Below, one piece after another: positions 1-11,880 of a stretch of DNA of 64,000 bases. The position numbers and the translations under genes are program-made. Origin of the DNA: a phage; NCBI GenBank assembly GCA_036253495.1, contig GCA_036253495.1_4125.1; one strand, written 5' to 3'. The notes below the pieces were generated by a model. That model had not been told where the DNA came from, did not search any database, and worked only from the letters and a program-made list of their open reading frames with translations. Each line of letters begins with the position of its first letter. Positions within the stretch are counted from its first letter, which is position 1.

Positions 1-20
1 ACCATATAAGGGTAACAGTT

Positions 21-110
21 ATGCACATGAATCCGTTCATAGTAGTAATTGCAATCATTATGGCAGTACAGGCCGTATTAGTTTACTTAAGCAAAGCAGG
101 AGTTATCTAA
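21..110 (+). CDS. hypothetical small hydrophobic peptide (29 aa)
   Basis: ATG21..TAA110 read by eye, below track cutoff; one hydrophobic helix. Confidence 0.25.
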   Translation: MHMNPFIVVIAIIMAVQAVLVYLSKAGVI

Positions 111-111
111 A

Positions 112-285
112 ATGATCCATGTAGAATTATCAGTACTGAAAGATTTGTTTTATCGGATGGGTACTACTGGCGAATATCCGAAGGGTGATACCGCAAAACT
201 TTTTGTATCACTCGACTTATGGCAACGCGAACAATTAGTAACGTCCTGGCGTAAAGGTAAAGCCGACAAGGGGGCCGTAGCATGA
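112..285 (+). CDS. hypothetical protein (57 aa)
   Basis: ATG112..TGA285 read by eye; stop overlaps next ATG. Confidence 0.3.
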   Translation: MIHVELSVLKDLFYRMGTTGEYPKGDTAKLFVSLDLWQREQLVTSWRKGKADKGAVA

Positions 286-431
286 AAGAATACATTTTCG
301 AAGTTACGTTTTTGGGTAAAGGTATGCATCAACTGATACGGTCCAGCGGATACAGTGTTAACCAGGCGTGGAATAACTTAAAACAAATGTACCCGAACGC
401 TATCACATATCGCAACCCTCGCGAGGCATAA
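282..431 (+). CDS. hypothetical protein (49 aa)
   Basis: ATG282..TAA431 read by eye; ATGA coupling. Confidence 0.3.
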   Translation: MKEYIFEVTFLGKGMHQLIRSSGYSVNQAWNNLKQMYPNAITYRNPREA

Positions 432-440
432 AATAAATTG

Positions 441-560
441 AAAAAAGGGATTGACTCCGGTCAGTCCCTTTGCTATTATATACGCATAGAAACAAATTAG
501 CCCACCGGGTGCATAAATGTATCTATTGTTTGCTGGTGGAGGTATTATCTAGTACTGAAA
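441..560. repeat. conserved intergenic element, copy 1 of 3
   Basis: AAAGGGA..TCCCTTT hairpin containing TTGACT-N17-TATTAT, GGGTGCATAAATGTATCTA box, GCTGGTGG at 532-539; near-identical at 3745 and 6823. Confidence 0.75.
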
Positions 561-578
561 ACTATTTTTAAAAAGTAC

Positions 579-645
579 TTGCATTGTACTTAGAATCAAG
601 TATAATGTTTTACATCAGGACGGGGAATGAAACAAGTAACCCCGT
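579..645 (+). promoter_or_regulatory. sigma70-like early promoter + 5' stem-loop
   Basis: -35 TTGCAT 579-584, -10 TATAAT 601-606, A/T-rich upstream, hairpin ACGGGG..CCCCGT 620-645. Confidence 0.6.
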
Positions 646-694
646 TAAGTAGTCCAGGAGTAAGACATAAGAAAACCTCCCCTGATAAAATAGT

Positions 695-722
695 TTGACA
701 ATAGAAAGTAAACGAGTATAAT
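695..722 (+). promoter_or_regulatory. sigma70-like promoter
   Basis: TTGACA 695-700, 16-nt spacer, TATAAT 717-722. Confidence 0.55.
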
Positions 723-754
723 ACTTACATCAACCACTGATAAGGAAACATAAA

Positions 755-1030
755 ATGCGGATTCTACTGACAGCTAACGAAATCGAGCAAGTACTGACTA
801 CTAACCTGGAACAATGGAAACGTGATGCAGATATCCAGGCGGTACAATGGCTTAACGATAAGTTAACGCCAGATGACTTAAGCAAGATTGTTGACCCTCA
901 ATTCTATGAAGATATTCACGACACGGCTTTAAGCGTCGAGGATGTACTTGATAAGCACTACATTGATATTGATTTGCAGGTTTACGGTCGTAAAAACTTT
1001 ATCACTATTCACGACATTTACAATACTTAA
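755..1030 (+). CDS. hypothetical early protein
   Basis: track ORF 91 aa; promoter upstream. Confidence 0.65.
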   Translation: MRILLTANEIEQVLTTNLEQWKRDADIQAVQWLNDKLTPDDLSKIVDPQFYEDIHDTALSVEDVLDKHYIDIDLQVYGRKNFITIHDIYNT

Positions 1031-1033
1031 GTA

Positions 1034-1092
1034 TTGACAAAGTATCTTAGTACTGTATAATAGTTTACATCAAGAGGGGAATGGTTCCCCTC
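1034..1092 (+). promoter_or_regulatory. sigma70-like early promoter + 5' stem-loop
   Basis: TTGACA 1034-1039, TATAAT 1056-1061, hairpin GAGGGGAATGGTTCCCCTC 1074-1092. Confidence 0.7.
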
Positions 1093-1115
1093 CTAACAAA
1101 GAGAGAGAAATAAAA

Positions 1116-1298
1116 ATGGCTAAGTGCACTATCTGTAAGAAAGAAATCGTATTAGTTCCAAGTGCCCGTGAACGTGCCGCTCGGTTCGGTGGCAAAGCGT
1201 CAGACTATACAAAAATGTTTACTGCCCATGCAGATTGCCAGGTAGCAAAACGTTCACAAGAAAGCGTAGAATTAATGCGTAAACTTTCCAAAAAATAA
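1116..1298 (+). CDS. hypothetical small Cys-containing protein
   Basis: track ORF 60 aa; SD GAGAGAGAAA; CxxC..HxxC. Confidence 0.65.
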   Translation: MAKCTICKKEIVLVPSARERAARFGGKASDYTKMFTAHADCQVAKRSQESVELMRKLSKK

Positions 1299-1302
1299 GT
1301 AT

Positions 1303-1363
1303 TGACAAAGTATCTTAGTACTGTATAATAGTTTACATCAAGTGAGGGGAATGGTTCCCCTCC
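1303..1363 (+). promoter_or_regulatory. sigma70-like early promoter + 5' stem-loop
   Basis: TTGACA 1303-1308, TATAAT 1325-1330, hairpin 1345-1363; same cassette as 1034. Confidence 0.7.
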
Positions 1364-1385
1364 TAACTAAAAGAGAGAAATAAAA

Positions 1386-1709
1386 ATGGCTATGATCCTC
1401 ACCCAGAAAGTAGAACTGAAAATTGTAACATCCTTTGACATTAAAGTTAATCGGTGGACTGATTCACACGGCAATACTTACCACTCTTGCTACGTGTCTG
1501 CGTTAATTGGCGACCGCTGGGAGGATTTAGGACATGAAACCTTTACTTACGGTTACGGCACACAAGGCGAATACACGGGCTTGGAGATCATTAAAGAAAC
1601 GGTTATAGGTTTCAACCCGAAAGAAAAAGTTATTCATCAAATAGAAAAAGAGATCAACAAAGAAATAACAGTTCGCTACAACGATGTAAAACGTAAGAAA
1701 GACATGTAA
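1386..1709 (+). CDS. hypothetical early protein
   Basis: track ORF 107 aa; cassette promoter+SD. Confidence 0.7.
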   Translation: MAMILTQKVELKIVTSFDIKVNRWTDSHGNTYHSCYVSALIGDRWEDLGHETFTYGYGTQGEYTGLEIIKETVIGFNPKEKVIHQIEKEINKEITVRYNDVKRKKDM

Positions 1710-1731
1710 TAGAATCCATTTAAAGTACTAT

Positions 1732-1760
1732 TTGACATTGCCCAGATAGTACTTTATAAT
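1732..1760 (+). promoter_or_regulatory. sigma70-like promoter
   Basis: TTGACA 1732-1737, 17-nt spacer, TATAAT 1755-1760. Confidence 0.6.
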
Positions 1761-1795
1761 AGACTCTAGCTTGTAGTACTAACTTAACTAATAGG

Positions 1796-2200
1796 ATGTA
1801 TACCATGATTACTAAATTCTACGCTACCCGTGAAGCTGCCCGTATTGTTGCACGCGAGGAAGGAGCAGCATTTAAAGACATGGGCACGACCGCACCGAAA
1901 GGCCAACGCTGGGCCGTACAGTTCAAAGAAATCTCTGATATTGTGAATTCACCTGAACCAGTACTAACAGCAGCAGAACAGAAGAAAGCTGATGAACTGT
2001 CAGCAGTACTTAACGCTCAAGATGAATTTATCGCGGGTTCTGATATCAAAGTACAGGTAAATGCTAATGCATGGACTCACGCGGATCACCTGGCTAACCT
2101 GAAGCGTCCAAGTGAACTGGTTCGCAACCAGAAAGAGATCCGACACGACCGTAAGGGTAATCGTGTAACAGTATACAGTAAACGCCGCCAGGTTATCTAA
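1796..2200 (+). CDS. hypothetical protein
   Basis: track ORF 134 aa (alt start ATG 1805). Confidence 0.65.
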   Translation: MYTMITKFYATREAARIVAREEGAAFKDMGTTAPKGQRWAVQFKEISDIVNSPEPVLTAAEQKKADELSAVLNAQDEFIAGSDIKVQVNANAWTHADHLANLKRPSELVRNQKEIRHDRKGNRVTVYSKRRQVI

Positions 2201-2222
2201 TAACTTGCAGTACTAACAACAC

Positions 2223-2248
2223 GGCGGGATCAGTTCCCGCCTTTTTTA
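2223..2248 (+). terminator. rho-independent terminator
   Basis: GGCGGGATCAGTTCCCGCC hairpin then TTTTTT. Confidence 0.75.
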
Positions 2249-2262
2249 TAGGATAAACTAAA

Positions 2263-2517
2263 ATGATTAAGGTACAACTATCTAAAGATAATATCTTGCG
2301 GGTACACTATAAAGCCCCTCAGAGAATCATCACAAAGGCCGTACAGCTTGCTAATGAGTTTATTAATGGTAATCTATTGCCCAGGAAGTTAAGCAACGGC
2401 AAACTGCGTGTAATCGATGTAGACACTAACAACAGGATAGTAATCGAGAATACCGGAAAGATAAACCTCTATGAACACCAACAATATAATAAGAAAATAA
2501 AACTAATATCACGTTGA
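2263..2517 (+). CDS. hypothetical protein
   Basis: track ORF 84 aa. Confidence 0.55.
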   Translation: MIKVQLSKDNILRVHYKAPQRIITKAVQLANEFINGNLLPRKLSNGKLRVIDVDTNNRIVIENTGKINLYEHQQYNKKIKLISR

Positions 2518-2542
2518 CAGTACTCAATTGTTTTAGTACTAT
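2514..2542 (+). promoter_or_regulatory. sigma70-like promoter
   Basis: TTGACA 2514-2519, 17-nt spacer, TACTAT 2537-2542. Confidence 0.55.
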
Positions 2543-2570
2543 GTATCTATACCAACACGGGAGAAACAAA

Positions 2571-2789
2571 ATGAAATTATCTAAAATCGAAAAGAAAACT
2601 ATTGATGAAGCAGTTAAGCACGGTTATACCTTTCGTAATGATTCACATTTTACCAATTTTCAACAAGGGTATCGTACTATTAAAAAACTAATTGACAAAG
2701 GTTTATTAGTTAAAGTAGATAACGGTAACGGCGTGGAGTATCAGCCAACACAAGACGCATTATCTTTAAAGAAATATGCAATTATCTAA
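2571..2789 (+). CDS. hypothetical protein (72 aa)
   Basis: track ORF begins at TTG inside promoter; SD GGGAGA + ATG 2571 preferred. Confidence 0.65.
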   Translation: MKLSKIEKKTIDEAVKHGYTFRNDSHFTNFQQGYRTIKKLIDKGLLVKVDNGNGVEYQPTQDALSLKKYAII

Positions 2790-2818
2790 TTGACAGTACT
2801 CAAATGTTTTAGTACTAT
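2790..2818 (+). promoter_or_regulatory. sigma70-like promoter
   Basis: TTGACA 2790-2795, 17-nt spacer, TACTAT 2813-2818; paralogous to 2514 promoter. Confidence 0.55.
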
Positions 2819-2854
2819 ATGTACATACCAACACGGAATAACTGGAGAAACAAA

Positions 2855-3082
2855 ATGATTAATATCTTAGAACGCATCAAAGAAACTACTACGCTGGTGG
2901 ATCTACTCAATGTACTGACTTTTAAAGTAACTCGGTTTAGTACTCCTGAATTTATCAACCTCATTGATAGTAAAGGTGAATACCGCATCACTATTGAAAA
3001 TGGTCGTGCTAATGTATTCAGTACTAAATCAGGTAAAACCGCAATTCATTCTGTAATTGCAAATAAAACTGTTGCAATCTAA
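2855..3082 (+). CDS. hypothetical protein (75 aa)
   Basis: SD GGAGAAA + ATG 2855; track start 2819 lies in promoter. Confidence 0.65.
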   Translation: MINILERIKETTTLVDLLNVLTFKVTRFSTPEFINLIDSKGEYRITIENGRANVFSTKSGKTAIHSVIANKTVAI

Positions 3083-3131
3083 TTAGTACTAACATATAAT
3101 AGTCACATCAAGGCAGGGAATACCTCCCTGC
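3072..3131 (+). promoter_or_regulatory. sigma70-like promoter + 5' stem-loop
   Basis: TTGCAA 3072-3077, TATAAT 3095-3100, hairpin GCAGGGA..TCCCTGC 3113-3131. Confidence 0.6.
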
Positions 3132-3151
3132 TATCTTAAAGAGTAAATGCA

Positions 3152-3736
3152 ATGCGTAATTATACTAAATTCATCCGGGCACTGGCAGAAATGGAAACTA
3201 ACAAAGAGATCCTTACAGCTTGTCGGTTGGCTGGTCTGGAGATCATCGGGGCCGGATCATCCCGTATCGTATTCGCTTTAAATGATCGGTTAGTGATTAA
3301 GGTCGCTAATTGTGACGCTGGCGTAGAACAAAATGAAACAGAATGTAAGGTATGGAATTTTTTAGATTATGACCGCCCTCACCTTAAACAGTACTTTGCT
3401 AAGGTGCATATGCATTTAAGCGATCCTGATAATATGTTTATTGTTATGGATCGTTTGAGTACTGCAAGCAAAGGCAGTGTAAAGCACGTTAACGCTTGCA
3501 ATGAATTAAAGTACAATGTCAAACGTAACACTATTGAACGCCAACACCATTTCGCTGATGCACTACAACACGTTGATGATACCTTATCAACACTAACGAT
3601 AAGAGATATCAGAAAGCAGAACATAGGCCAAGATCGCAATGGCCTGATTAAAGTACTTGATTACGGTTTAACCCGCAATATCTGGAATCAGTACTATAAA
3701 CAACGCGACGTAAAAGCCGTAACTATAACACGATAA
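3152..3736 (+). CDS. putative protein-kinase-like protein (atypical small Ser/Thr kinase fold)
   Basis: IIGAGSSRIVF (Gly-loop), VIKV (Lys), IRDIRKQN (catalytic loop), VLDYG (DFG-like) in kinase order. Confidence 0.45.
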   Translation: MRNYTKFIRALAEMETNKEILTACRLAGLEIIGAGSSRIVFALNDRLVIKVANCDAGVEQNETECKVWNFLDYDRPHLKQYFAKVHMHLSDPDNMFIVMDRLSTASKGSVKHVNACNELKYNVKRNTIERQHHFADALQHVDDTLSTLTIRDIRKQNIGQDRNGLIKVLDYGLTRNIWNQYYKQRDVKAVTITR

Positions 3737-3744
3737 AAAAGATT

Positions 3745-3870
3745 AAAAAAGGGATTGACTCCAGTCAGTCCCTTTGCTATTATATAGTCATTGAGAGATA
3801 ACTCACTGACCCATAGGGTGCATAAGTGTATCTATAATATAAGTATTGTCAGTACTGAAAACTATTTTAA
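3745..3870. repeat. conserved intergenic element, copy 2 of 3
   Basis: same hairpin/promoter-like module and GGGTGCATAAGTGTATCTA box as 441-560; no GCTGGTGG in this copy. Confidence 0.75.
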
Positions 3871-3878
3871 AAAAGTAC

Positions 3879-3940
3879 TTGCATTGTACTTAGAATCAAG
3901 TATAATGTTTTATATCGAGAGGGGGAAACGGTTCTCCCTG
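3879..3940 (+). promoter_or_regulatory. sigma70-like early promoter + 5' stem-loop
   Basis: TTGCAT 3879-3884, TATAAT 3901-3906, hairpin ~3919-3938; identical to 579-606. Confidence 0.7.
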
Positions 3941-3958
3941 GCAATAAGGAATAAAATC

Positions 3959-4180
3959 ATGACTACAATGACTTGCATTTACGCTTCCAATCTTCTGAAT
4001 GATGCGGCCTTTAATGTTGATTCAGAATATCAATGTTATCGGGATGAAAATAAAAAAGTTTTTGTAGTTGATAATAATGGTTTCCATATTGAATTGCAAT
4101 CCGGCTTCACTGGCGTTGATGGTAAATCAGTATGGGGCGTACAGGATGATAAAGGTACATATCATTTTAAACGTAATTAA
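3959..4180 (+). CDS. hypothetical early protein (73 aa)
   Basis: SD AAGGAATAAA + ATG 3959; track start 3791 spans promoter. Confidence 0.65.
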   Translation: MTTMTCIYASNLLNDAAFNVDSEYQCYRDENKKVFVVDNNGFHIELQSGFTGVDGKSVWGVQDDKGTYHFKRN

Positions 4181-4183
4181 GTA

Positions 4184-4242
4184 TTGACAAAGTATCTTAG
4201 TACTGTATAATAGTTTACATCAAGGGGAGAATAGTTCTCCCC
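4184..4242 (+). promoter_or_regulatory. sigma70-like early promoter + 5' stem-loop
   Basis: TTGACA 4184-4189, TATAAT 4206-4211, hairpin GGGGAGAATAGTTCTCCCC 4224-4242. Confidence 0.7.
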
Positions 4243-4263
4243 GATACTAAAAGGAATAAAATC

Positions 4264-4671
4264 ATGACTACTACTAATCAAGCTCGGTCCATCGCCAACG
4301 ATAAAAATCATGCTGCAATGGTCGCTGGTTACATTGAAGCTATGCAATTCAGTACTGTACACAATGAGAACGGCGAATACCTGGAAGATTATGAATTATC
4401 AGAGCAAGCCCATCAAGCGGCAGTGATTGCATGTTCACGTTTCCTTGCTGTACATGGTGAAGATATGGAAACAGTACAAAAACACCATAATCCTGATTAT
4501 ACTTATAATCATGCAGGTCATGATCTCTTTCTTACTCGCGAAGGTCACGGTACTGGCTTTTGGGATCGTGATATCGGTCACTATGACGATGTATTCACTA
4601 AGTACTGCGAAGAAATCAACGTTTGCGATCCCTATGTAGGCGATGATAATCTAATCTATATGGGCGAATAA
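4264..4671 (+). CDS. hypothetical early protein (His/Asp-rich)
   Basis: track ORF 135 aa; cassette promoter + SD AAAAGGAATAAA. Confidence 0.7.
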   Translation: MTTTNQARSIANDKNHAAMVAGYIEAMQFSTVHNENGEYLEDYELSEQAHQAAVIACSRFLAVHGEDMETVQKHHNPDYTYNHAGHDLFLTREGHGTGFWDRDIGHYDDVFTKYCEEINVCDPYVGDDNLIYMGE

Positions 4672-4677
4672 AAGTAC

Positions 4678-4736
4678 TTGACAAAGTATATCAGTACTGT
4701 ATAATAGTTTACATCAAGGGGAGAATAGTTCTCCCC
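4678..4736 (+). promoter_or_regulatory. sigma70-like early promoter + 5' stem-loop
   Basis: TTGACA 4678-4683, TATAAT 4700-4705, hairpin 4718-4736. Confidence 0.7.
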
Positions 4737-4758
4737 ACCAATAAAAGGAAACAACATT

Positions 4759-5031
4759 ATGTCAAGCTACTCCGCTACTATGATCATTAAAGATATGAAC
4801 GGTAATCCTACTTCTGCTGGTGGATCATTTGGAAACATTAACTTAGATGGTCGGTTATCAATGGAATCAGCCATCAATGCAGCGAAAGAAGTTTTTAAGA
4901 ATGAATGTACTGTAAGCAAGCTAGATTATATGGGCTTCGCTATCGAGAAAACTAAACGTTTTGTGGACTACAAAAATCCACTAATGATTGATACTAACCT
5001 GAAAGCTAACGAAGTGGAATACTTATTATGA
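4759..5031 (+). CDS. hypothetical early protein
   Basis: track ORF 90 aa; SD AAAAGGAAAC. Confidence 0.7.
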   Translation: MSSYSATMIIKDMNGNPTSAGGSFGNINLDGRLSMESAINAAKEVFKNECTVSKLDYMGFAIEKTKRFVDYKNPLMIDTNLKANEVEYLL

Positions 5032-5219
5032 CAGTTGAAGAAGTTAAAAAAGTACTGGCAGTACTACGCTATCATAATCATTGCAAGGTGAAGAATGATC
5101 CTGATTATGTTGATTCATCCCTGGAGGAAGACACCTTAAACGCGATAAGCCATATGCAAACATTAGCAAAGCGTATGACCGAAAAGAATAGGCCGGACTA
5201 TATCGGAAATAAAATTTAA
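5028..5219 (+). CDS. hypothetical protein
   Basis: track ORF 63 aa; ATGA overlap with previous. Confidence 0.6.
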   Translation: MTVEEVKKVLAVLRYHNHCKVKNDPDYVDSSLEEDTLNAISHMQTLAKRMTEKNRPDYIGNKI

Positions 5220-5226
5220 AAAGTAC

Positions 5227-5288
5227 TTGCATTGTAGTTAGATTAAAGTATAATGTTTTATATCGAGAGGGGGAAATGGTTTCCCCTC
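5227..5288 (+). promoter_or_regulatory. sigma70-like early promoter + 5' stem-loop
   Basis: TTGCAT 5227-5232, TATAAT 5249-5254, hairpin GAGGGGGAAATGGTTTCCCCTC. Confidence 0.7.
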
Positions 5289-5306
5289 AAGTCCAGGAGA
5301 TACACC

Positions 5307-5570
5307 ATGAACACTATCGAAATCACTATTAATGCTCACGTATACGACAACGTAGTACTGCAAACTACTATGACCGCTAACGATACCAGTACTTTGCGGA
5401 ATACTGTTATAAGTGCTGTATGTGCCGCTATCGGTGATGTATCCCTGGAAAATGCAGAACACATCAACAACGGTTTCACTATGTGCAAACGTGATAACGC
5501 AAAACATATCATCGTAGAAGGTTACGGCGGTGTAGAATATAACCTTTATATGAAAAAAGTACTTGCATAG
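5307..5570 (+). CDS. hypothetical early protein (87 aa)
   Basis: SD AGGAGA + ATG 5307; track start 5253 is in promoter. Confidence 0.65.
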   Translation: MNTIEITINAHVYDNVVLQTTMTANDTSTLRNTVISAVCAAIGDVSLENAEHINNGFTMCKRDNAKHIIVEGYGGVEYNLYMKKVLA

Positions 5571-5619
5571 TAACTAAAACAAAGTATAATGTTTTGCATA
5601 GGGGGAGATATCCTCCCCC
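5563..5619 (+). promoter_or_regulatory. sigma70-like early promoter + 5' stem-loop
   Basis: TTGCAT 5563-5568, TATAAT 5585-5590, hairpin GGGGGAGATATCCTCCCCC 5601-5619. Confidence 0.7.
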
Positions 5620-5638
5620 ACTAATAAGGAGTACTACG

Positions 5639-5863
5639 ATGGCTAATCATGATGAACTGATTCGGGAAGTAGCTAACCTGGCGGCAGAAAAGAAATCATT
5701 TGATTCTATCTATAACACCGCTCACCGTGATTCAGTACTGGCATGTAATCAGGATCAAAAAGATGAACTGATCGCAACCTATCATGAAGCATGGAAGTAT
5801 TACCGTCAATGGGAGAAAGAAGAAAAAGCATCAACCATAAGAGGATTAAATAATCTAGTATAA
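5639..5863 (+). CDS. hypothetical early protein (74 aa)
   Basis: SD TAAGGAG + ATG 5639; track start 5594 is in hairpin. Confidence 0.65.
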   Translation: MANHDELIREVANLAAEKKSFDSIYNTAHRDSVLACNQDQKDELIATYHEAWKYYRQWEKEEKASTIRGLNNLV

Positions 5864-5915
5864 CAATAAAAGGGGATGATAATATCCCCTTAATAATTTC
5901 TATAATAGGTTAACA

Positions 5916-6182
5916 ATGAAAAAGAAAACAACATATCGCTATAATAAAAATTATCAATCCGTTGTATTAGATCACTCTATGCTCCCGCTCGTTGTCCCTG
6001 CCGTTGGTGTAGTCTATCAATCCATATACTGGTCAAGGAAACAACAAAAGTACTTAAAAGGCCCACTAGCACGTTATGAGGGTAACGGTGTATGGTCCGA
6101 TCCGTTACATCCAATCACTACGCGTTATATTGAATATTTTCCTTATTGTGACTACATTGAAATACATCCTAAATTTAATTGA
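5916..6182 (+). CDS. hypothetical protein, paralog of 6263-6520
   Basis: track ORF 88 aa; shared LP..P..G..Y....W......Y.....Y.GNG.W.DP..PI pattern. Confidence 0.65.
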   Translation: MKKKTTYRYNKNYQSVVLDHSMLPLVVPAVGVVYQSIYWSRKQQKYLKGPLARYEGNGVWSDPLHPITTRYIEYFPYCDYIEIHPKFN

Positions 6183-6187
6183 TAGTA

Positions 6188-6241
6188 TTGACAGTACTAA
6201 CTGATAGTGTATAATGTTTTGCATAGGGGGAATACTCCCCC
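6188..6241 (+). promoter_or_regulatory. sigma70-like early promoter + 5' stem-loop
   Basis: TTGACA 6188-6193, TATAAT 6210-6215, hairpin GGGGGAATACTCCCCC 6226-6241. Confidence 0.7.
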
Positions 6242-6262
6242 AATATTAAAAGGGGAATCATC

Positions 6263-6520
6263 ATGGAACAATTCACACAATATCGGGTAAATCCTCAAGC
6301 TATGGCCTACGTAGAAGACCATAAAACGTTACCAGTACTGCAACCAGTTAAAGGCCGTATCTATCGTGGCCTTGCATGGAATACGGCCCAGGATGGATAT
6401 AAAACCGTTGCCGTGGGGATGTATTGCGGGAATGGTGAATGGTTTGATCCTAACAATCCGATTGCACTTGACAGTACTGAAAAAATGAAATGGGCCGACT
6501 ATATCGAGGATATCTCATAA
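6263..6520 (+). CDS. hypothetical protein, paralog of 5916-6182
   Basis: track ORF 85 aa; cassette promoter. Confidence 0.7.
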   Translation: MEQFTQYRVNPQAMAYVEDHKTLPVLQPVKGRIYRGLAWNTAQDGYKTVAVGMYCGNGEWFDPNNPIALDSTEKMKWADYIEDIS

Positions 6521-6526
6521 AACTAT

Positions 6527-6588
6527 TTGACAGTACTATCATATAGTGTATAATGTTTTACATAGAGCGGGGGAATAGTTCTCCCGCC
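6527..6588 (+). promoter_or_regulatory. sigma70-like early promoter + 5' stem-loop
   Basis: TTGACA 6527-6532, TATAAT 6549-6554, hairpin ~6565-6588. Confidence 0.7.
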
Positions 6589-6609
6589 AATAGTTTGGAG
6601 TAAAACATT

Positions 6610-6810
6610 ATGTCAATCGCTATCGCCCTGGTTGAAGTACTGAAAGAAGCTAAAGCTAACCTGATCGACGTAAAGATCCAGGAACTACAATCCGGCTTAA
6701 TCGGCTGTACTTGTACCGCTGGTGGGGCGACAGATTATCGTGAATTCGAATCACTCGAATCTATGGTTCGGTATCTTACAATGATCGTGGAAGATTGGAA
6801 GATCATCTAA
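6610..6810 (+). CDS. hypothetical early protein
   Basis: track ORF 66 aa; SD TTTGGAG. Confidence 0.65.
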   Translation: MSIAIALVEVLKEAKANLIDVKIQELQSGLIGCTCTAGGATDYREFESLESMVRYLTMIVEDWKII

Positions 6811-6822
6811 CAAAAAAGAATA

Positions 6823-6960
6823 AAAAAAGGGATTGACTCCGGTCAGTCCCTTTGCTATTATATACGCATAGACAAAAACTAGCCCACAGGGTGCATAGGT
6901 GTATCTAAAATATATAGTTAATAACGGTGAGTAACTATCTGCTGGTGGAGTGAAAACTAT
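6823..6960. repeat. conserved intergenic element, copy 3 of 3
   Basis: same module as 441-560; GGGTGCATAGGTGTATCTA; GCTGGTGG at 6941-6948. Confidence 0.75.
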
Positions 6961-6973
6961 TAATAAAAAACTA

Positions 6974-7002
6974 TTGACAAAGTATAGCAGTACTGCAATA
7001 AT
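6974..7002 (+). promoter_or_regulatory. sigma70-like promoter
   Basis: TTGACA 6974-6979, 17-nt spacer, AATAAT 6997-7002 (weaker -10). Confidence 0.5.
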
Positions 7003-7055
7003 GTATCTCGTAGGGCGGCAATGGTGCGACGGTCCACAAAGTTAGGAGATTCAAA

Positions 7056-7388
7056 ATGAGTACTTCAATCGCTATCGTAAACGCTTTCATCCGTACCAAT
7101 GTTTCATCTGTATTCATTGACGGGCTGGATCGGGAAGTAGAATACTCAATCATTATCGCACAAACTGCAAACGGTGCTCGGTATATCCTCAATGATAGTG
7201 AAGCAAATCACTACTACTACACTAAAGCTACTGGCTTTAAACGCATCGATGCGGACGTAGTATACGCTAAGATGAATAAGCTGGTAGACAAGATTAACGC
7301 TAAAGGTACTATCGATTTACAGTACTGGACCGAAACCGATCCAGAATATGGATCACATCGCTACCTGAATCCAGGTATTAAAATGTAA
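7056..7388 (+). CDS. hypothetical protein
   Basis: track ORF 110 aa; SD TTAGGAGA. Confidence 0.65.
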   Translation: MSTSIAIVNAFIRTNVSSVFIDGLDREVEYSIIIAQTANGARYILNDSEANHYYYTKATGFKRIDADVVYAKMNKLVDKINAKGTIDLQYWTETDPEYGSHRYLNPGIKM

Positions 7389-7395
7389 AAAGTAC

Positions 7396-7458
7396 TTGCA
7401 TAGTACTTAGTAAAGTGTATAATGTTTTACATAGAGAGGGGGAAATGGTTCTCCCTCC
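7396..7458 (+). promoter_or_regulatory. sigma70-like early promoter + 5' stem-loop
   Basis: TTGCAT 7396-7401, TATAAT 7418-7423, hairpin GAGGGGGAAATGGTTCTCCCTC. Confidence 0.7.
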
Positions 7459-7477
7459 TAAATTAAGGAGTTTTATC

Positions 7478-7879
7478 ATGACCTTCTCAATCACTTCTTA
7501 CGCTGACGTTTTAGTACTGGCTCGGACTTTTGGTAAAGATGCACTGGAGTACGCTGTAAGTAATGGTACTATCCAACCGGAGCAGTGCCGCATCATTGGA
7601 AACTGCAAACGTTGGGCGGTATCCAATACTATTGCACTGGAAAACTTCAACGATGGCAACAATGAATATTCTGTTGATGTAGTATTCGAAGCCGTTGATC
7701 TCGGCGGTATCTATAACACTAACCTGAATGATGTGCGTATCGTTCGCACGGGGTTCGGTGCTTATGATGTATCTATTCGTGAAGCTATGAACACCGGATA
7801 CATTAGCAAGGACTTACTTGCTCACATCATGCAGCTGTGGACGGAACGTAACGAAGCACGCACTATCTTAGGACTGTAA
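7478..7879 (+). CDS. hypothetical early protein (133 aa)
   Basis: SD TAAGGAG + ATG 7478; track start 7415 is in the -10. Confidence 0.65.
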   Translation: MTFSITSYADVLVLARTFGKDALEYAVSNGTIQPEQCRIIGNCKRWAVSNTIALENFNDGNNEYSVDVVFEAVDLGGIYNTNLNDVRIVRTGFGAYDVSIREAMNTGYISKDLLAHIMQLWTERNEARTILGL

Positions 7880-7903
7880 GCATTACACATCACCAAACAT
7901 CAT

Positions 7904-7923
7904 AGGCCGCTCTCTAGCGGCCT
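7904..7923 (+). other. GC-rich stem-loop without T-tract
   Basis: AGGCCGCTCTCTAGCGGCCT perfect inverted repeat; mRNA-stability or processing site candidate. Confidence 0.4.
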
Positions 7924-7947
7924 TAACTATATCAGGAGTACACACAC

Positions 7948-8157
7948 ATGATCTATACAGTATACAGCGTTCTAGGTACTATTGCAGGCGTACACGATAA
8001 CGTCAATGATGCTATGCGTACAGTACTGCAACAGGTTCCACTAAAGCCTAAGACTATTAAGCAGATGACAGCACGACTAACCAGGGCAAAGGCTGGCGGT
8101 GAAGTCTGGCAGGACTACGCGGATACGCAGATTATCATTGCAGTAAGTAATGATTAA
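7948..8157 (+). CDS. hypothetical protein
   Basis: track ORF 69 aa; SD CAGGAG. Confidence 0.6.
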   Translation: MIYTVYSVLGTIAGVHDNVNDAMRTVLQQVPLKPKTIKQMTARLTRAKAGGEVWQDYADTQIIIAVSND

Positions 8158-8202
8158 TGAATTAAATGATTCAGTACTAAAACTATTAGTCAGAAAATAA
8201 TC

Positions 8203-8231
8203 GGTGCATTTTTAAAATGCATCGTTTTTTA
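8203..8231 (+). terminator. rho-independent terminator
   Basis: GGTGCATT..AATGCATC hairpin then GTTTTTT. Confidence 0.6.
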
Positions 8232-8339
8232 TTTTAACCAGTACACTATAACGTATGAAATAGTTTCGACCTGTTATTATAACTTAGGGCAACTAGGGGC
8301 GGGTAATTGCTTAGCTCGTGTGAAGGGGTTCATAGGGTA

Positions 8340-8369
8340 TTGACTTTTTATATGAATCGTGTATTATAT
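8340..8369 (+). promoter_or_regulatory. sigma70-like promoter of the GTNYQ-family array
   Basis: TTGACT 8340-8345, TATTAT 8362-8367. Confidence 0.5.
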
Positions 8370-8397
8370 GATTGATATTAATTTTAAGGGAGTCCCT

Positions 8398-8595
8398 ATG
8401 CGTATTTTAACACAAGAAGAGCATCACGAAAGACTTATCAATAACATGGCTATGATAATGTATAAGTCTCATAAACGTGGTAATGCCTATAAACGTGAAT
8501 TAGTTATGGAACTATTCTTAGGAACTAACTTACAAAATGAATATGTTAAACTATATGTAAAAGAGTTATGTTTAGAGATAAATGGTAAACTATGA
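8398..8595 (+). CDS. GTNYQ-family small protein
   Basis: SD AAGGGAG + ATG 8398; motif LFLGTNLQ. Confidence 0.7.
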   Translation: MRILTQEEHHERLINNMAMIMYKSHKRGNAYKRELVMELFLGTNLQNEYVKLYVKELCLEINGKL

Positions 8596-8792
8596 AAATG
8601 CGTACATTAACTCAAGATGAATATCATCATATACTACGTAAAAACACGGCAAGAATTTACCAAAGCAATGTGCACTTAGAAAGAGTTGAGTTGTACCTGT
8701 TGATTACGATGGGAACAAACTATCAGGAAGTGTGGATAACTCACTATTTGGAATCTTTGAAAGCTGACATACGAGCTAGGAGAAAACTATGA
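8592..8792 (+). CDS. GTNYQ-family small protein
   Basis: track ORF; TMGTNYQ; ATGA coupling; near-duplicate of 8789-8989. Confidence 0.75.
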   Translation: MKMRTLTQDEYHHILRKNTARIYQSNVHLERVELYLLITMGTNYQEVWITHYLESLKADIRARRKL

Positions 8793-8989
8793 AAATGCGT
8801 ACATTAACCGAAAAAGAATATCAAGCTCTACTACGTAAAAACATGGTAAGGATTTACCAAAGCGATGTGCACTTAGAAAGAGTTGAGTTGTACCTTTTGA
8901 TTACAATGGGAACCAACTATCAGGAAGCATTGATATCGAAATATTTGGAATCTTTGAAAGCTGACATACGAGCGAGGTGCAAACATTGA
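8789..8989 (+). CDS. GTNYQ-family small protein
   Basis: track ORF; TMGTNYQ; near-duplicate of 8592-8792. Confidence 0.75.
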   Translation: MKMRTLTEKEYQALLRKNMVRIYQSDVHLERVELYLLITMGTNYQEALISKYLESLKADIRARCKH

Positions 8990-9195
8990 AAATCATAACA
9001 CAGACACAAGCATTTGGTCGTATATTGAAATACCTTGATGACATGATAGATATACATAGTGACCTCCCTAAAACTGTAATCGACGCCAAAAGAGCAGAAT
9101 ATCGCATGATGGCTGTACTGAACACAAACTTTCAGGAAGAGTATGTCAATGATTGGATTGGATTTTTAATTGAAGATATAAAGAGTAAACTATGA
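8986..9195 (+). CDS. GTNYQ-family small protein
   Basis: TTG 8986 after SD GAGGTG (track uses GTG 8977); motif LNTNFQ. Confidence 0.6.
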   Translation: MKIITQTQAFGRILKYLDDMIDIHSDLPKTVIDAKRAEYRMMAVLNTNFQEEYVNDWIGFLIEDIKSKL

Positions 9196-9404
9196 TTATA
9201 TTAACACCAGAGCAATATAGGAAACGTTACAATTCTAAGCAGATTGAAATCTTGCTGATATATGCAGACAGGGATGATGTATACTTATCAAAAGTTATGG
9301 AAAAAGAATTACTTATGGGTGTCTTCTTAGGAACTGACCACCAGAAATCTTATGTCCAAGAGTATCTAATAGCTCTTGAGAAATACATCAGGAGTAAACT
9401 ATGA
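9192..9404 (+). CDS. GTNYQ-family small protein
   Basis: track ORF; FLGTDHQ; ATGA coupling. Confidence 0.7.
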   Translation: MIILTPEQYRKRYNSKQIEILLIYADRDDVYLSKVMEKELLMGVFLGTDHQKSYVQEYLIALEKYIRSKL

Positions 9405-9625
9405 ACTGCATTAATAACTTTGAATACGAGGCTCGCTCAAGGTGTGCATCTCAAAAAGAGAACCACATTTACTTCACTATGATGTACTTATCTTGGAATG
9501 AAATTGAAGAAATGGTTGCTGAAGTATGGCTGTTTGAATTCATGGGGACGCAGTATCAGAATAGGTTTGTGGGTGAGTATCTTAATGTTCTTATGAAACA
9601 TATAGAAAGAAAGGGAATGAACTAA
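9401..9625 (+). CDS. GTNYQ-family small protein
   Basis: track ORF; FMGTQYQ. Confidence 0.7.
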   Translation: MNCINNFEYEARSRCASQKENHIYFTMMYLSWNEIEEMVAEVWLFEFMGTQYQNRFVGEYLNVLMKHIERKGMN

Positions 9626-9876
9626 TGAAAGTATTATCAAGCACTGAGTATCAATCTGCCCTATTCTCTTTACTAAACACCCTTCGCAAGAACAATGAAC
9701 TTTATCCTTCCCCTGAGAATGATGTAGTTAATGGTGACGTGTTTCTACTTAAATTCGTTGGAACTAATAAACAAGATATCTTCACTGATCGTTATATCAA
9801 TGCACTAAGAAACCTTGTAGCGTATAAAACCCGCCAGGCCAAAAGAGAATGGAAGAGACAATGCGATCCAGAATAA
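9625..9876 (+). CDS. GTNYQ-family small protein
   Basis: track ORF; FVGTNKQ. Confidence 0.7.
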   Translation: MKVLSSTEYQSALFSLLNTLRKNNELYPSPENDVVNGDVFLLKFVGTNKQDIFTDRYINALRNLVAYKTRQAKREWKRQCDPE

Positions 9877-10109
9877 ATCACATCATGTACGTTAAACTAT
9901 TTCAGAAACTAATCCACAAACACTATGATACAGTATCTGATAAACTCACTAATGATATCAGCAGACTTATTCACTGTGAAGCAGAGATGCTTGTACTGAT
10001 GACGGGAGACGATACACAAACAATCTCTAAGGCAATAGAGAACTATCTGGAAGCATATCAACAACATATAAGAACGGAAGTCTGGAGACGAGAGAATGAA
10101 AATCCTTAG
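9861..10109 (+). CDS. GTNYQ-family small protein (divergent)
   Basis: ATG 9861 (track 9849); degenerate motif MTGDDTQ. Confidence 0.55.
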   Translation: MRSRINHIMYVKLFQKLIHKHYDTVSDKLTNDISRLIHCEAEMLVLMTGDDTQTISKAIENYLEAYQQHIRTEVWRRENENP

Positions 10110-10311
10110 TGGGTATGAATATTACAGGCTGTTGCGAACTATACAAGCAAAAGTTTCTAGTATTTCTTTAAACAAATCTATTGCACAAGTGGACAAATGT
10201 GTTATAATAACTGAAATGAAGCTATCTATCTTCATTGGGACAAACTATCAAAGCATCTACACTGACGCATGGTTAGCAAGTCTACGTAACAAGGTGATAT
10301 CCAGAGAATGA
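10096..10311 (+). CDS. GTNYQ-family small protein
   Basis: track ORF; FIGTNYQ. Confidence 0.7.
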   Translation: MKILSGYEYYRLLRTIQAKVSSISLNKSIAQVDKCVIITEMKLSIFIGTNYQSIYTDAWLASLRNKVISRE

Positions 10312-10526
10312 AAAAATTACAAGGTTTTGAATATATTAAGCTTCTGCAAACCTGTGAAATCCAAAGAAGAAAGATTCAAAAGGCTAAAAGAATTACCGCA
10401 GAACGAAAGTTTACACTGATAACTGAAGTCTATGTAGAGGCACTCTTAGGCACAAACTATCAACAAACGTATATAGACCTATGGATTGATGCACTCCAGA
10501 AAGAGGTTAAAAGTAAATGCAAATGA
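10308..10526 (+). CDS. GTNYQ-family small protein
   Basis: track ORF; LLGTNYQ; ATGA coupling. Confidence 0.7.
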   Translation: MKKLQGFEYIKLLQTCEIQRRKIQKAKRITAERKFTLITEVYVEALLGTNYQQTYIDLWIDALQKEVKSKCK

Positions 10527-10741
10527 TTAATTTAAGTAAAGATGAATATTATGTACGTCTTGCAAAAACTTATTCATTACGCAAGGCCATTTATGAAAGT
10601 CACATTATTGAACAATCAAATAAGTGGATTGTAGTAAATGAAATCAAGATGCTTTCAGTCTTAGGAACAAACTATCAAGCGAGTGCTGTACTGAAGGTCA
10701 TTAATGCACTTCAAAATGAGGTCCAAAGTAAATGCAAATGA
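10517..10741 (+). CDS. GTNYQ-family small protein
   Basis: track ORF; VLGTNYQ; starts MQM overlapping ..KCK stop. Confidence 0.7.
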   Translation: MQMINLSKDEYYVRLAKTYSLRKAIYESHIIEQSNKWIVVNEIKMLSVLGTNYQASAVLKVINALQNEVQSKCK

Positions 10742-10995
10742 TCAATTTAAGTCAAGATGAATATAACGAGCGACTTGCAAAAATCTCACCTAAACGTAAT
10801 GCAATCTATCACAGCCAAGAAATTCAACACAGTAAGAAGATGATTATGTTTCGTGAGTTAAAGATGGGTGTCTTCTTAGGAACAAACTATCAAGAGACAG
10901 AAGTAAATCGCGTCATAACCGAGTTACTCATGGAAATCAGAGGTAAGCTGTACTTTCATCAAATGACCCAACCACTGAGGTGTAATGAGAAATGA
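10732..10995 (+). CDS. GTNYQ-family small protein
   Basis: track ORF; FLGTNYQ. Confidence 0.7.
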   Translation: MQMINLSQDEYNERLAKISPKRNAIYHSQEIQHSKKMIMFRELKMGVFLGTNYQETEVNRVITELLMEIRGKLYFHQMTQPLRCNEK

Positions 10996-11690: not shown

Positions 11691-11880
11691 CGAATACGGT
11701 GTTATCATCCTTGATGTTATCAATAAAGAATACCATAGGAAACAACGATACGCTTGTTATGAAGATAAACAGCTTTCTATAGCTGAACAACAATTAGTTC
11801 ATTTATTAGGAACAAACTATCAAGAACAATGCACTGAACGTTACCTGTATCTACTGTCGAGGAAAACACAAAGATTATGA
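11671..11880 (+). CDS. GTNYQ-family small protein
   Basis: track ORF; LLGTNYQ. Confidence 0.7.
   Translation: MQHLTDDEYGVIILDVINKEYHRKQRYACYEDKQLSIAEQQLVHLLGTNYQEQCTERYLYLLSRKTQRL

Follow-up and report, generated by a model that had tools for sequence, protein, structure and literature searches.

Why does a nearly identical promoter-hairpin unit precede one small gene after another over the first kilobases of this phage DNA? The first-pass annotation of the window (the whole analysed stretch of 64,000 nt) had taken the units between positions 579 and 7458 for early expression cassettes in which a 5′ stem-loop stabilizes the mRNA of host-takeover genes. The observation itself was confirmed, whereas its interpretation is supported only in part. 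It missed the location in a direct terminal repeat (DTR), the match to a known type of phage cassette and a role in recombination.

A megablast search matched the window to 109 phage records, and those with the highest coverage all belong to Asteriusvirus; on this similarity the source phage is a 121Q/G17-type jumbo coliphage of that genus. Homology to phage G17, whose record is identical between 1–20668 and 350150–370817 (the two repeat copies), places window positions 1 to ∼8310 at the inner end of a DTR of ∼20.7 kb. Repeat lengths of 20,668 bp and 20,993 bp have been reported for phages Sharanji and fEgEco12, respectively (PMC11895373, PMC13070987). The cassette array spans the whole G17 repeat, where roughly half of the 38 promoter-like sites carry the hairpin.

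On the + strand of positions 1–8309 we found 17 near-consensus sigma70 promoters of the type TTGACA/TTGCAT/TTGCAA-N16/17-TATAAT, accompanied by A/T-rich UP-like tracts. Perfect 12/12 promoters (TTGACA-N16/17-TATAAT) occur eight times on this strand and not once on the − strand of the same interval, against a chance expectation of 0.004 from base composition. A hairpin with a G-run and a C-run starts 10–14 nt after the −10 element, most commonly 12 nt, at 12 of the 17 promoters (579, 1034, 1302, 3072, 3879, 4184, 4678, 5227, 5563, 6188, 6527 and 7396); it is not obligatory, because the other five (695, 1732, 2514, 2790 and 6974) lack it. It is likewise absent from a further promoter at 8340, just beyond the DTR. 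An unpaired A-rich leader, a Shine-Dalgarno (SD) sequence and an ATG then follow in 11 of the 12 hairpin cassettes, the exception being 579. The elements are:

444–479, + strand: composite terminator/promoter; hairpin 444–471 reads AAAGGGATTGAC tccg GTCAGTCCCTTT, with −35 TTGACT (451) inside the stem and −10 TATTAT ending at 479; closes an upstream sub-array and is followed by ∼100 nt of conserved non-coding sequence
579–646, + strand: solo cassette; UP-like tract, TTGCAT-16-TATAAT 579–606, hairpin 619–646; no ORF before the next promoter; conserved in G17 and Justusliebigvirus muut
695–757, + strand: hairpin-less cassette; TTGACA-16-TATAAT 695–722, SD AAGGAA, ATG 755, ORF 755–1030
1034–1118, + strand: cassette; TTGACA-16-TATAAT 1034–1061, hairpin 1074–1092, ATG 1116, ORF 1116–1298 (60 aa)
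1302–1388, + strand: cassette; promoter 1302–1329 (identical to that at 1034), hairpin 1344–1362, ATG 1386, ORF 1386–1709
1732–1807, + strand: cassette without G-run hairpin; TTGACA-17-TATAAT 1732–1760, ATG 1805, ORF 1805–2200
2223–2241, + strand: canonical intrinsic terminator, GGCGGGA tcagt TCCCGCC then TTTTTT, just 5′ of ORF 2263–2517 (ParE-like toxin domain)
2514–2573, + strand: cassette without downstream hairpin; TTGACA-17-TACTAT 2514–2542, ATG 2571, ORF 2571–2789; two AGTACT copies form an inverted repeat within the spacer, a position like that in RB49 PeSL cassettes (see below)
2790–2857, + strand: sister cassette of 2514; promoter 2790–2818, ATG 2855, ORF 2855–3082
3072–3154, + strand: cassette; TTGCAA-17-TATAAT 3072–3100, hairpin 3112–3132, ATG 3152, ORF 3152–3736
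3748–3783, + strand: composite terminator/promoter, second copy; hairpin 3748–3775, promoter 3755–3783; conserved non-coding element follows to about 3860
3879–3961, + strand: cassette; UP-like tract, TTGCAT-16-TATAAT 3879–3906, hairpin 3920–3939, ATG 3959, ORF 3959–4180
4184–4266, + strand: cassette; TTGACA-16-TATAAT 4184–4211, hairpin 4224–4242 (GGGGAGAA tag TTCTCCCC), ATG 4264, ORF 4264–4671
4678–4761, + strand: cassette; promoter 4678–4705, hairpin 4718–4736 (same as in 4184), ATG 4759; serves ORF 4759–5031 and the overlapping ORF 5028–5219
5227–5309, + strand: cassette; TTGCAT-16-TATAAT 5227–5254, hairpin 5267–5288, ATG 5307, ORF 5307–5570
5563–5641, + strand: cassette; TTGCAT-16-TATAAT 5563–5590, hairpin 5601–5619, ATG 5639, ORF 5639–5863
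5864–6246, + strand: insertion; hairpin 5870–5891, ORF 5916–6182 (by eye similar to ORF 6263–6520) and most of cassette 6188
6188–6265, + strand: cassette; TTGACA-16-TATAAT 6188–6215, hairpin 6226–6241, ATG 6263, ORF 6263–6520
6527–6612, + strand: cassette; TTGACA-16-TATAAT 6527–6554, hairpin 6567–6587 (with a G·T pair), ATG 6610, ORF 6610–6810
6826–6861, + strand: composite terminator/promoter, third copy; hairpin 6826–6853, promoter 6833–6861; conserved non-coding element follows to about 6960
6974–7058, + strand: cassette; TTGACA-17-AATAAT 6974–7002, TG before the −10, leader with only weak, irregular predicted structure, ATG 7056, ORF 7056–7388
7396–7480, + strand: cassette; TTGCAT-16-TATAAT 7396–7423, hairpin 7436–7457, ATG 7478, ORF 7478–7879; in some GenBank relatives this gene begins 33 nt upstream, at the in-frame ATG of the hairpin loop
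8202–8224, + strand: strong intrinsic terminator (terminator scan), closing the array ∼85 nt before the DTR boundary
8305–8312, no strand: inner DTR boundary, where position 1 of the G17 record aligns by homology (window ∼8310)

With a single fixed hairpin definition, hairpins were recovered at 11 of 18 promoters, while the control frequencies were 0.5% for shuffled segments and 0.44% for 50-mers from the unique region; G-run hairpins with stems of at least 7 bp number 15 in 1–8309 versus one in 8310–64000. Predicted leader folding energies at the 12 hairpin promoters range from −11 to −16 kcal/mol, and the SD is unpaired in all predicted folds. The first-pass annotation was right about the anatomy, a promoter followed by a transcribed hairpin, a free SD and an ATG, and eleven examples precede an ORF. 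Its uniform, perfect hairpin is too strong a description: 12 hairpins exist, but several are not perfect because they contain a G·T pair, and the five DTR promoters and 8340 have none. The AGTACT motif is indeed present within or adjacent to nearly all promoters, but its excess extends across the whole window (213 copies, 9–20 times expectation), so it is not specific to them. The five longest-ORF starts that the first-pass annotation placed inside promoters do exist: 5253, 5594, 7415 and 8359 lie in or directly beside a −10, and 3791 follows the −10 of the promoter at 3755. The corrected starts are reasonable: the downstream ATGs have properly spaced SDs, and the resulting lengths equal the G17 versions for most of the genes that G17 annotates.

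As the hairpin lies downstream of the predicted transcription start, it would be part of the gene's own mRNA; a start 6–8 nt after the −10 leaves 3–7 unpaired nt before the stem. The 51 unique hairpins show many two-sided compensatory changes, although the compared sequences are related and the variants not all independent, and the hairpin appears to be under selection for pairing. At the fourth pair from the loop we counted A-T 7, G-C 27, G·T 9, C-G 4 and T-A 4 times. An excess of G·T over A·C, only 4 to 1 when any single mismatch is allowed, would weakly support a role at the RNA rather than the DNA level. Of 39 distinct arm pairs, 38 place the G-rich arm on the 5′ side of the sense strand.

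All differences in gene content from six relatives amount to seven indels with junctions in or at regulatory cassettes, although any viable indel would to some extent be expected to break between genes. In five of the seven, one chimeric cassette stands in place of two flanking ones; in the same five, the flanking alignments overlap by 55–100 nt in the relative, one cassette there equalling two here. The mosaic of the chimeric cassettes is directly visible, with crossover patches on both sides of the hairpin and not at it. ORF 1116–1298 is missing in 121Q and TH47, both of which keep just one chimeric cassette at this place, ORF 2571–2789 in TH47 and SD-2_S15, ORF 4264–4671 in 121Q, CRJP21 and SD-2_S15, ORF 5307–5570 in 121Q and ORF 6610–6810 in TH47. 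TH47 also lacks a four-ORF block with cassette 3879 at its left edge, and all six relatives are without the insertion 5864–6246. Cassette-plus-gene blocks are moreover common to unrelated phage groups, with identities of up to 92%: window 600–1104 is 91.8% identical to Justusliebigvirus muut, the block ending inside cassettes 579 and 1034; W70 (Vequintavirinae) and the G17 repeat have at least 10 common blocks in different order; and ORF 5028–5219 also occurs in rV5-like phages (70–84% identity among the matches listed). The architecture recurs in RaK2, whose hairpin sequences differ. The comparison shows that the repeated cassette of ∼85–100 nt serves as portable homology, and its best-supported property is that phages gain, lose and exchange genes there, both inside a genus and across genera.

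The closest known system is the PeSL (promoter-early stem-loop) cassette of T4-like RB49/phi1. Such cassettes have been described in T4-like RB49/phi1, T4/PST and KVP40/nt-1 (PMC2839356, PMC4122927). Both systems combine a near-consensus sigma70 promoter, an A/T-rich upstream tract, a G-run/C-run stem-loop, an SD and a start codon; in both, many copies precede genes without known function in a hyperplastic region and bound indels between close relatives, and the first transcribed bases are similar (CATCAAG..., CATCGA..., CATACC...). However, the RB49 stem-loop lies between −35 and −10 or over the −10, whereas here it follows the −10; the RB49 stem-loop acted as a terminator in a reporter assay, whereas here it is a 5′ UTR hairpin without a T-run; and the present array fills the DTR of a jumbo Asteriusvirus rather than belonging to a T4-like phage. 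No similarity to RB49 was detected by blastn. Phages T5 and SPO1 also carry early or host-takeover genes in terminal repeats, and the array would resemble the first-step-transfer region of T5 and the host-takeover module of SPO1 in its dense small genes, strong host-type promoters, long repeat and single coding strand; those modules are not known to have a uniform hairpin cassette or to be shuffled through cassettes. As with morons and integron cassettes, single genes with their own expression signals are gathered in a dedicated region. Morons lack a conserved flanking repeat, and integron cassettes have no promoter of their own and require an integrase and attC sites, whereas here the conserved promoter-hairpin unit is itself the homology; a Pfam scan of the array ORFs contained no integrase domain.

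We consider it likely, at a probability of roughly 0.7, that this DTR end is an array of PeSL-type plug-in early-gene modules, with recombining cassettes fired by host RNA polymerase and a hairpin acting in RNA. Each module would comprise an A/T-rich UP-like tract, a near-consensus sigma70 promoter, the hairpin (G-rich 5′ arm, C-rich 3′ arm, 10–14 nt after the −10), an unstructured A-rich leader with SD and a small ORF, mostly without known function. Host RNA polymerase would fire all modules once the DNA enters the cell, and the array would be divided and closed by the three terminators with embedded promoters (the G17 homologues of their hairpins are annotated as ARNOLD terminators) and the final terminator. 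As the comparison shows, recombination between neighbouring cassettes deletes or inserts single ORFs, with one chimeric cassette left behind. The hairpin would protect the message close to its 5′ end and/or insulate it from its context, and insulation would let a module work wherever it lands; terminator action is not predicted. Among 20 array genes scanned against Pfam, 18 had no match, one (ORF 3152–3736) a weak protein-kinase-like match and one a ParE-like domain. The host-takeover set proposed earlier is plausible as immediate-early genes driven by host RNA polymerase, a timing that we infer from the consensus promoters, the small genes mostly without known function and the DTR location.

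It is possible, though we find it doubtful, that the cassette is an expression device only, in which an ompA-type 5′ stem-loop blocks entry of RppH and RNase E and lengthens half-life, with no role in recombination. The hairpin is stable and keeps a near-constant distance from the −10, its G-arm-first orientation and G·T pairs suggest a strand-specific role in RNA, and 5′-terminal stem-loops are known stabilizers of mRNAs in E. coli (Emory, Bouvet and Belasco 1992, cited in PMC3997798). The predicted leaders would resemble those of ompA and papA in having a stable hairpin near the 5′ end and a free ribosome-binding site; those stem-loops, however, are effective only when no more than a few nt separate the stem from the 5′ end. 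The predicted 3–7 unpaired nt exceed the just 2–3 nt that RppH requires (PMC3997798), RNase E scanning is poorly hindered by a plain stem-loop in a non-terminal position, which gives negligible protection (PMC11194081), and both enzymes would still be admitted. The geometry is borderline, and the ‘classic mRNA-stabilising’ device of the first-pass annotation is not established. The absence of the hairpin from five DTR promoters also speaks against this explanation, and the indels bounded by cassettes, like the blocks common to different genera, show a role of the repeats beyond expression.

The original explanation of PeSL, an attenuator or terminator that limits upstream read-through so that each gene is dominated by its own promoter, seems unlikely here. 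The RB49 stem-loop cut lacZ expression as strongly as rrnB T1 (a result for the RB49 hairpin only), most modules have no other terminator between them, and in Pseudomonas phages 42 termination sites lie in 5′ UTRs, some just 3′ of promoters (PMC10914365). Yet T-runs are missing after all 12 DTR hairpins (no more than 3 T in 8 nt) and after all 39 distinct arm pairs; the terminator scan omits all 12, and separate canonical terminators exist at 444, 2223, 3748, 6826 and 8202. Lying downstream of its own promoter, the hairpin would attenuate its own gene as well. We regard as improbable a DNA-level element, be it an operator bound by a shut-off repressor of the phage or else a cruciform or a site that a recombination protein recognizes. 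Its position at about +5 to +25 is typical of repressors that block RNA polymerase, cassettes hold the indel junctions, and the PeSL authors speculated on a GGGG/CCCC-binding recombination protein (PMC2839356/PMC4122927). But half-sites vary widely across cassettes and genera while two-sided changes keep the pairing, which a sequence-specific dimer would not tolerate; a symmetric DNA site has no need of the arm asymmetry, and the crossover patches flank the hairpin. The repeated unit marks the places at which related phages gained, lost and swapped small genes.

Between positions 1 and 8309 the + strand carries 17 sigma70-type promoters that read TTGACA, TTGCAT or TTGCAA, N16–17, and TATAAT or a close variant. 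Eight of them match the consensus at 12 of 12 positions, against a base-composition expectation of 0.004; the − strand has none, and the other 55.7 kb of the window just three. The 22 nt 5′ of the −35 box are 64–86% A+T. An extended −10 element was rejected, as the main promoter class reads CTG-TATAAT and not TGn. The promoters and the terminators and non-coding elements that divide the array are listed below.

Promoters, terminators and conserved non-coding elements of the array (window coordinates)
579, 695, 1034, 1302, 1732, 2514, 2790, 3072, 3879, 4184, 4678, 5227, 5563, 6188, 6527, 6974, 7396, + strand: promoter starts
444–479: composite terminator/promoter
480–575: conserved non-coding DNA, about 100 nt
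2223–2241: canonical terminator
3748–3783: composite terminator/promoter
3784–3875: conserved non-coding DNA, about 100 nt
6826–6861: composite terminator/promoter
6862–6970: conserved non-coding DNA, about 100 nt
8202–8224: canonical terminator, end of array, about 85 nt short of the repeat boundary

At 12 promoters a hairpin with a G-run 5′ arm and a C-run 3′ arm lies 10–14 nt past the −10 box (for example GGGGAGAA-tag-TTCTCCCC, GAGGGGAA-tgg-TTCCCCTC and GGGGGAG-atatc-CTCCCCC). With a fixed definition, the hairpin was present at 11 of 18 real promoters, compared with 0.5% of shuffled segments and 0.44% of 50-mers from the unique region. Each leader was folded from the seventh base past the −10 box through the ATG: the predicted energies with the 12 hairpins formed are −11 to −16 kcal/mol, and the Shine-Dalgarno sequence (SD) and the A-rich leader are unpaired in all predicted folds. 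An ORF follows 11 of the hairpin cassettes. The first-pass annotation had proposed a uniform early expression cassette of promoter, 5′ stem-loop, SD and ATG, a reading that is plausible from these sequence features. Its observation is confirmed with small corrections: the G-run hairpin is absent at 695, 1732, 2514, 2790 and 6974, and cassette 579 has no ORF. An inverted repeat in the spacer (AGTACT...AGTACT) occurs in cassettes 2514 and 2790 only. Several longest-ORF starts had been doubted as well, which is reasonable: these starts exist, and the ATGs downstream of them have proper SDs. Of the five questioned starts, 3791 comes after the −10 box of the 3755 promoter, and the other four fall within a −10 box or right next to one; gene lengths in the related phage G17 agree with the downstream ATGs for most co-annotated genes.

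Many hairpin loops themselves contain an ATG (AATGG, AAATGG, ATGA), as at window position 7445 in hairpin 7436–7457 and in L001 at 12157 and L002 at 7974. For gene 7478, GenBank places the start in A4 and G17 33 nt upstream (435 nt versus 402 nt), which judged by position is the in-frame hairpin-loop ATG; in CRJP21 and SD-2_S15 the start is the SD-linked ATG. The stretch 579–694 holds a promoter and hairpin and reaches the next promoter without an intervening ORF. About 80 nt of it are kept in G17 and also, at roughly 90% identity, in muut, an unrelated phage. The stretch might give rise to a short non-coding transcript, or be a cassette minus its gene.

The hexamer AGTACT (often CAGTACTG) adjoins or sits within nearly every array promoter and occurs 213 times in the 64-kb window (132, 551, 574 and so on to 63739), at 20 times the base-composition expectation in 1–8200 and about 9 times elsewhere. 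Copies occupy all three codon phases as well as intergenic DNA, so that selection acts on DNA and not on codons. Two stretches, 8173 to 11978 and 13794 to 20588, are free of it; a literature search on its over-representation gave nothing relevant.

We aligned window 1–9000 with six relatives (A4, G17, 121Q, TH47, CRJP21 and SD-2_S15). Each of the six differs from the window in gene content, and the junctions of all seven differences lie in or at cassettes.

Gene-content differences between the window and its relatives (junctions in window coordinates)
1122|1290: ORF 1116–1298, absent from 121Q and TH47
2574|2790: ORF 2571–2789, absent from TH47 and SD-2_S15
3939|5215: four ORFs, absent from TH47
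4275|4672: ORF 4264–4671, absent from 121Q, CRJP21 and SD-2_S15
5277|5554: ORF 5307–5570, absent from 121Q
5863|6247: ORF 5916–6182, in the window and in none of the six relatives
6522|6813: ORF 6610–6810, absent from TH47

In the five events from 1122|1290 to 5277|5554 both junctions are within promoter cassettes. Here the flanking alignments overlap by 55–100 nt in the relative, such that one cassette there corresponds to two in the window. In the other two events one junction belongs to a cassette, within it or at its edge, and the second coincides with the end of a gene beside a terminator-type hairpin. Direct reading of the chimeric cassettes shows an upstream part from the left cassette joined to a downstream part from the right one, and some are patchily mosaic on either side of the hairpin. 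As read from these alignments, the chimeric cassettes are a signature of homologous recombination between neighbouring repeats, and gene gain and loss at cassettes is the best-supported property of the array. By eye, ORF 5916–6182 in insertion 5864–6246 resembles its neighbour 6263–6520, and the promoter cassette is replaced; this points to a local event of recent date, either duplication or insertion.

Megablast matched 109 phage records. Those with the best coverage were all jumbo coliphages of the 121Q/PBECO4/G17 type (genus Asteriusvirus), at 90–94% identity; the best single place spanned no more than 68% of the query and did so in several pieces. Positions 1–20668 of the G17 record are identical to 350150–370817 and constitute a direct terminal repeat (DTR). 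Position 1 of G17 falls at window position ~8310 in the alignment, so the array lies in the inner 8.3 kb of the DTR, with all its genes directed at the unique region. Neither this context nor the role of recombination had been recognized in the first-pass annotation. Dense arrays of early genes in terminal repeats are known from the host-takeover module of SPO1 and the first-step-transfer region of T5. The array recalls both by its layout: it lies within the DTR, and its promoters are of host type and on the + strand only, as in a terminal-repeat early module. The entire G17 repeat is built in the same way: its ~53 small ORFs share one strand, and of its 38 promoter-like sites about half have a hairpin. 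For Sharanji the terminal repeat is given as 20,668 bp and for fEgEco12 as 20,993 bp, the latter backed by restriction digests (PMC11895373, PMC13070987). G+C content is 0.37–0.41 in the DTR part (window 1–8000) and 0.29–0.36 in 8001–64000.

Pfam gave no match for 18 of the 20 array ORFs. In ORF 2263–2517 a ParE-like toxin domain was recognised (E = 6e-11); ORF 3152–3736 (194 aa) weakly resembles protein kinases, at E = 1e-3, which does not reach the Pfam cut-off. Hints of host-acting products are limited to these two. In the relative ph0011 the gene under the ORF 3152–3736 match carries a kinase-domain annotation. ORF 2263–2517 lies directly 3′ of a canonical terminator and lacks its own promoter. 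Close to the repeat boundary, in the unique region from 8398–8989 onward, ORFs of ~65–66 aa stand back to back with overlapping stops and starts. Clear paralogy is seen for the second and third at least, and the sole promoter for all is at 8340; AGTACT is missing from this stretch, and the G17 annotation has ~19 such genes in succession.

The three composite elements, which split the array into sub-arrays, consist of a hairpin with a 12-bp stem that has the −35 box TTGACT inside the stem, followed by a −10 box TATTAT. Their homologues in G17 are annotated as ARNOLD terminators. The non-coding DNA that follows them conserves the motif CCCAnnGGGTGC-N6-GTATCTAT, present in several copies per repeat in G17, A4, 121Q, TH47 and CRJP21 and also in the Klebsiella jumbo phage RaK2. 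Possible identities of this element are a small RNA and a site for protein binding. It had no match in Rfam, and RNAalifold gave only an invariant stem of six pairs, three of them G·U, with no covariation; MAFFT misaligned an upstream stem that appears covarying by eye. A further terminator of the composite design with an embedded promoter lies far from the terminal repeat at 33804–33844 (AAAGCCAGGGT-attg-ACTCTGGCTTT), where the −35 box TTGACT overlaps the loop and 3′ arm and the −10 box is TATTAT.

What the G-run hairpin does was approached through a collection of 51 unique variants from 12 sources. Pairing is kept across all of them through many two-sided changes, such as G-C to A-T, C-G or T-A at stem positions two and five. 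At the fourth pair from the loop we counted A-T 7, G-C 27, G·T 9, C-G 4 and T-A 4, and G·T is the intermediate expected if RNA pairing is selected. With any single internal mismatch allowed, G·T outnumbers A·C by 4 to 1 only, a suggestive ratio from too few cases to decide. The 5′ arm on the sense strand is the G-rich one in 38 of 39 distinct arm pairs (mean purine fraction 0.89), an asymmetry for which a symmetric DNA site would have no need. An arm-swap permutation was set aside as evidence, since it is partly circular: the hairpins had been chosen for pairing. The substitution patterns indicate that pairing is under selection and that the hairpin most likely acts at the RNA level. A sequence-specific operator is very unlikely, as the half-sites vary while pairing persists and the G-rich arm stays 5′ on the sense strand. 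The hairpins lack the U-tract of an intrinsic (rho-independent) terminator, with a T-run after 0 of the 12 window hairpins and at most three T in the following 8 nt. A terminator scan lists none of the 12, the true terminators being those at 2223 and 8202, and by this sequence proxy the hairpin is not a canonical terminator. An RNase III site was rejected on stem length (merely 6–10 bp), and a sigma70-dependent pause element in the stem (GAGAAT) on the absence of the position-2 A from most variants. Rfam at a permissive threshold gave no match for window 1–9000.

Among RNA-level roles, the mRNA-stabilising one proposed in the first-pass annotation turns on where transcription starts. If the start is the A 6 or 8 nt past the −10 box, as predicted, 3–7 unpaired nt precede the stem. 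A 5′-terminal stabiliser has its stem at the 5′ end or within ~2–4 nt of it. RppH requires just 2–3 unpaired nt (PMC3997798, also a source for that spacing), and a plain non-terminal stem-loop gives negligible protection against RNase E scanning (PMC11194081). The predicted geometry would be borderline; a literature search for transcription start mapping in related coliphages found none. Two other roles would fit equally well: an insulator that shields a mobile module from its context, or a barrier that acts once read-through RNA is processed.

The closest described system is the promoter-early stem-loop (PeSL) cassette of the T4-like phages RB49/phi1, T4/PST and KVP40/nt-1. It is made up of a strong promoter of sigma70-like type with A/T-rich DNA upstream, a stem-loop with a G-run and a C-run, an SD and a start codon. 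In hyperplastic regions PeSLs lie on either side of genes whose function is unknown, and they bring about modular shuffling and the formation of mini-circles (PMC2839356, PMC4122927). The window shares the near-consensus early-type sigma70 promoter with its A/T-rich upstream tract, the stable G-run/C-run stem-loop, the hyperplastic region of small genes and the cassette-bounded indels. In the RB49 PeSLs whose sequences we inspected, however, the stem-loop is located in the spacer separating the −35 from the −10 box or over the −10 box, whereas in the window it follows the −10 box by 10–14 nt. The first transcribed bases in RB49, CATCAAGACGA, CATCGAAACGA and CATACCGAAACGA, resemble CATCAAG-hairpin, TATCGAGAG-hairpin and CATACCAACACG of the window. 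Judged by its sequence, the window cassette has every testable PeSL feature except the stem-loop position, and the terminator proxy is negative; it is therefore a variant of the PeSL kind and not a plain member. The literature on Asteriusvirus, CBB and rV5, as far as covered, offers promoter predictions at most and no hairpin cassette or cassette-bounded shuffling, a coverage too incomplete to prove novelty.

A 99-nt cassette query (window 4168–4266) found 8–22 places per Asteriusvirus genome, about double in records with both repeat copies. It occurs once each in Justusliebigvirus and related ~147-kb phages, in one Vequintavirinae phage and in Klebsiella jumbo phages of the RaK2/K64-1 type. 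Two exact-pattern cassette scans of IMG/VR returned just 121Q, one related contig and chance A/T-rich matches, and thus no new cassette diversity. The cassette architecture is alike in the regions from the Justusliebigvirus phage muut, the Vequintavirinae phage W70 and RaK2, with hairpins of different sequence in RaK2 (GGGGATACA-tag-TGTATCCCT, GGGAATGAA-tta-TTCATTCCC). Muut matches window 600–1104 at 91.8% identity over 513 nt, and the common block runs from within the 579 promoter to just past the 1034 hairpin. W70 and the G17 repeat have at least 10 blocks of 120–540 nt in common, arranged in another order. ORF 5028–5219 is common to rV5-like phages, with 70–84% identity among the matches listed. 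It is also matched by the 'Campylobacter phage' records D#, A140, C2 and A147 (~137–143 kb), which match like E. coli rV5-like phages of equal size, and their host labels seem doubtful.

A further reading, with a probability of roughly one in three, is that the promoter-hairpin-SD unit is a common adaptor. Through it, Asteriusvirus, RaK2-like, rV5-like, phi92-like and perhaps RB49-like phages would draw, across families and without an integrase, on one pool of early-gene cassettes. Early genes would then be interchangeable, in an integron-like manner, among otherwise unrelated large virulent enterobacterial phages. The jumbo phage would take up such genes in its terminal repeat, as a landing pad; at the RNA level the transcribed hairpin would insulate each module, so that it works in whatever context.

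If this holds, such cassettes would offer engineering compact, strong expression units whose function apparently does not depend on context. Annotation would have to take the SD-linked ATG past the hairpin as the gene start, in preference to the longest ORF; in some GenBank records the start seems to lie upstream of that ATG. PeSL-type modular shuffling would extend past the T4-like phages to large coliphages, the jumbo ones among them, and would give phages a concrete route for trading small early genes, which often counter host defences.
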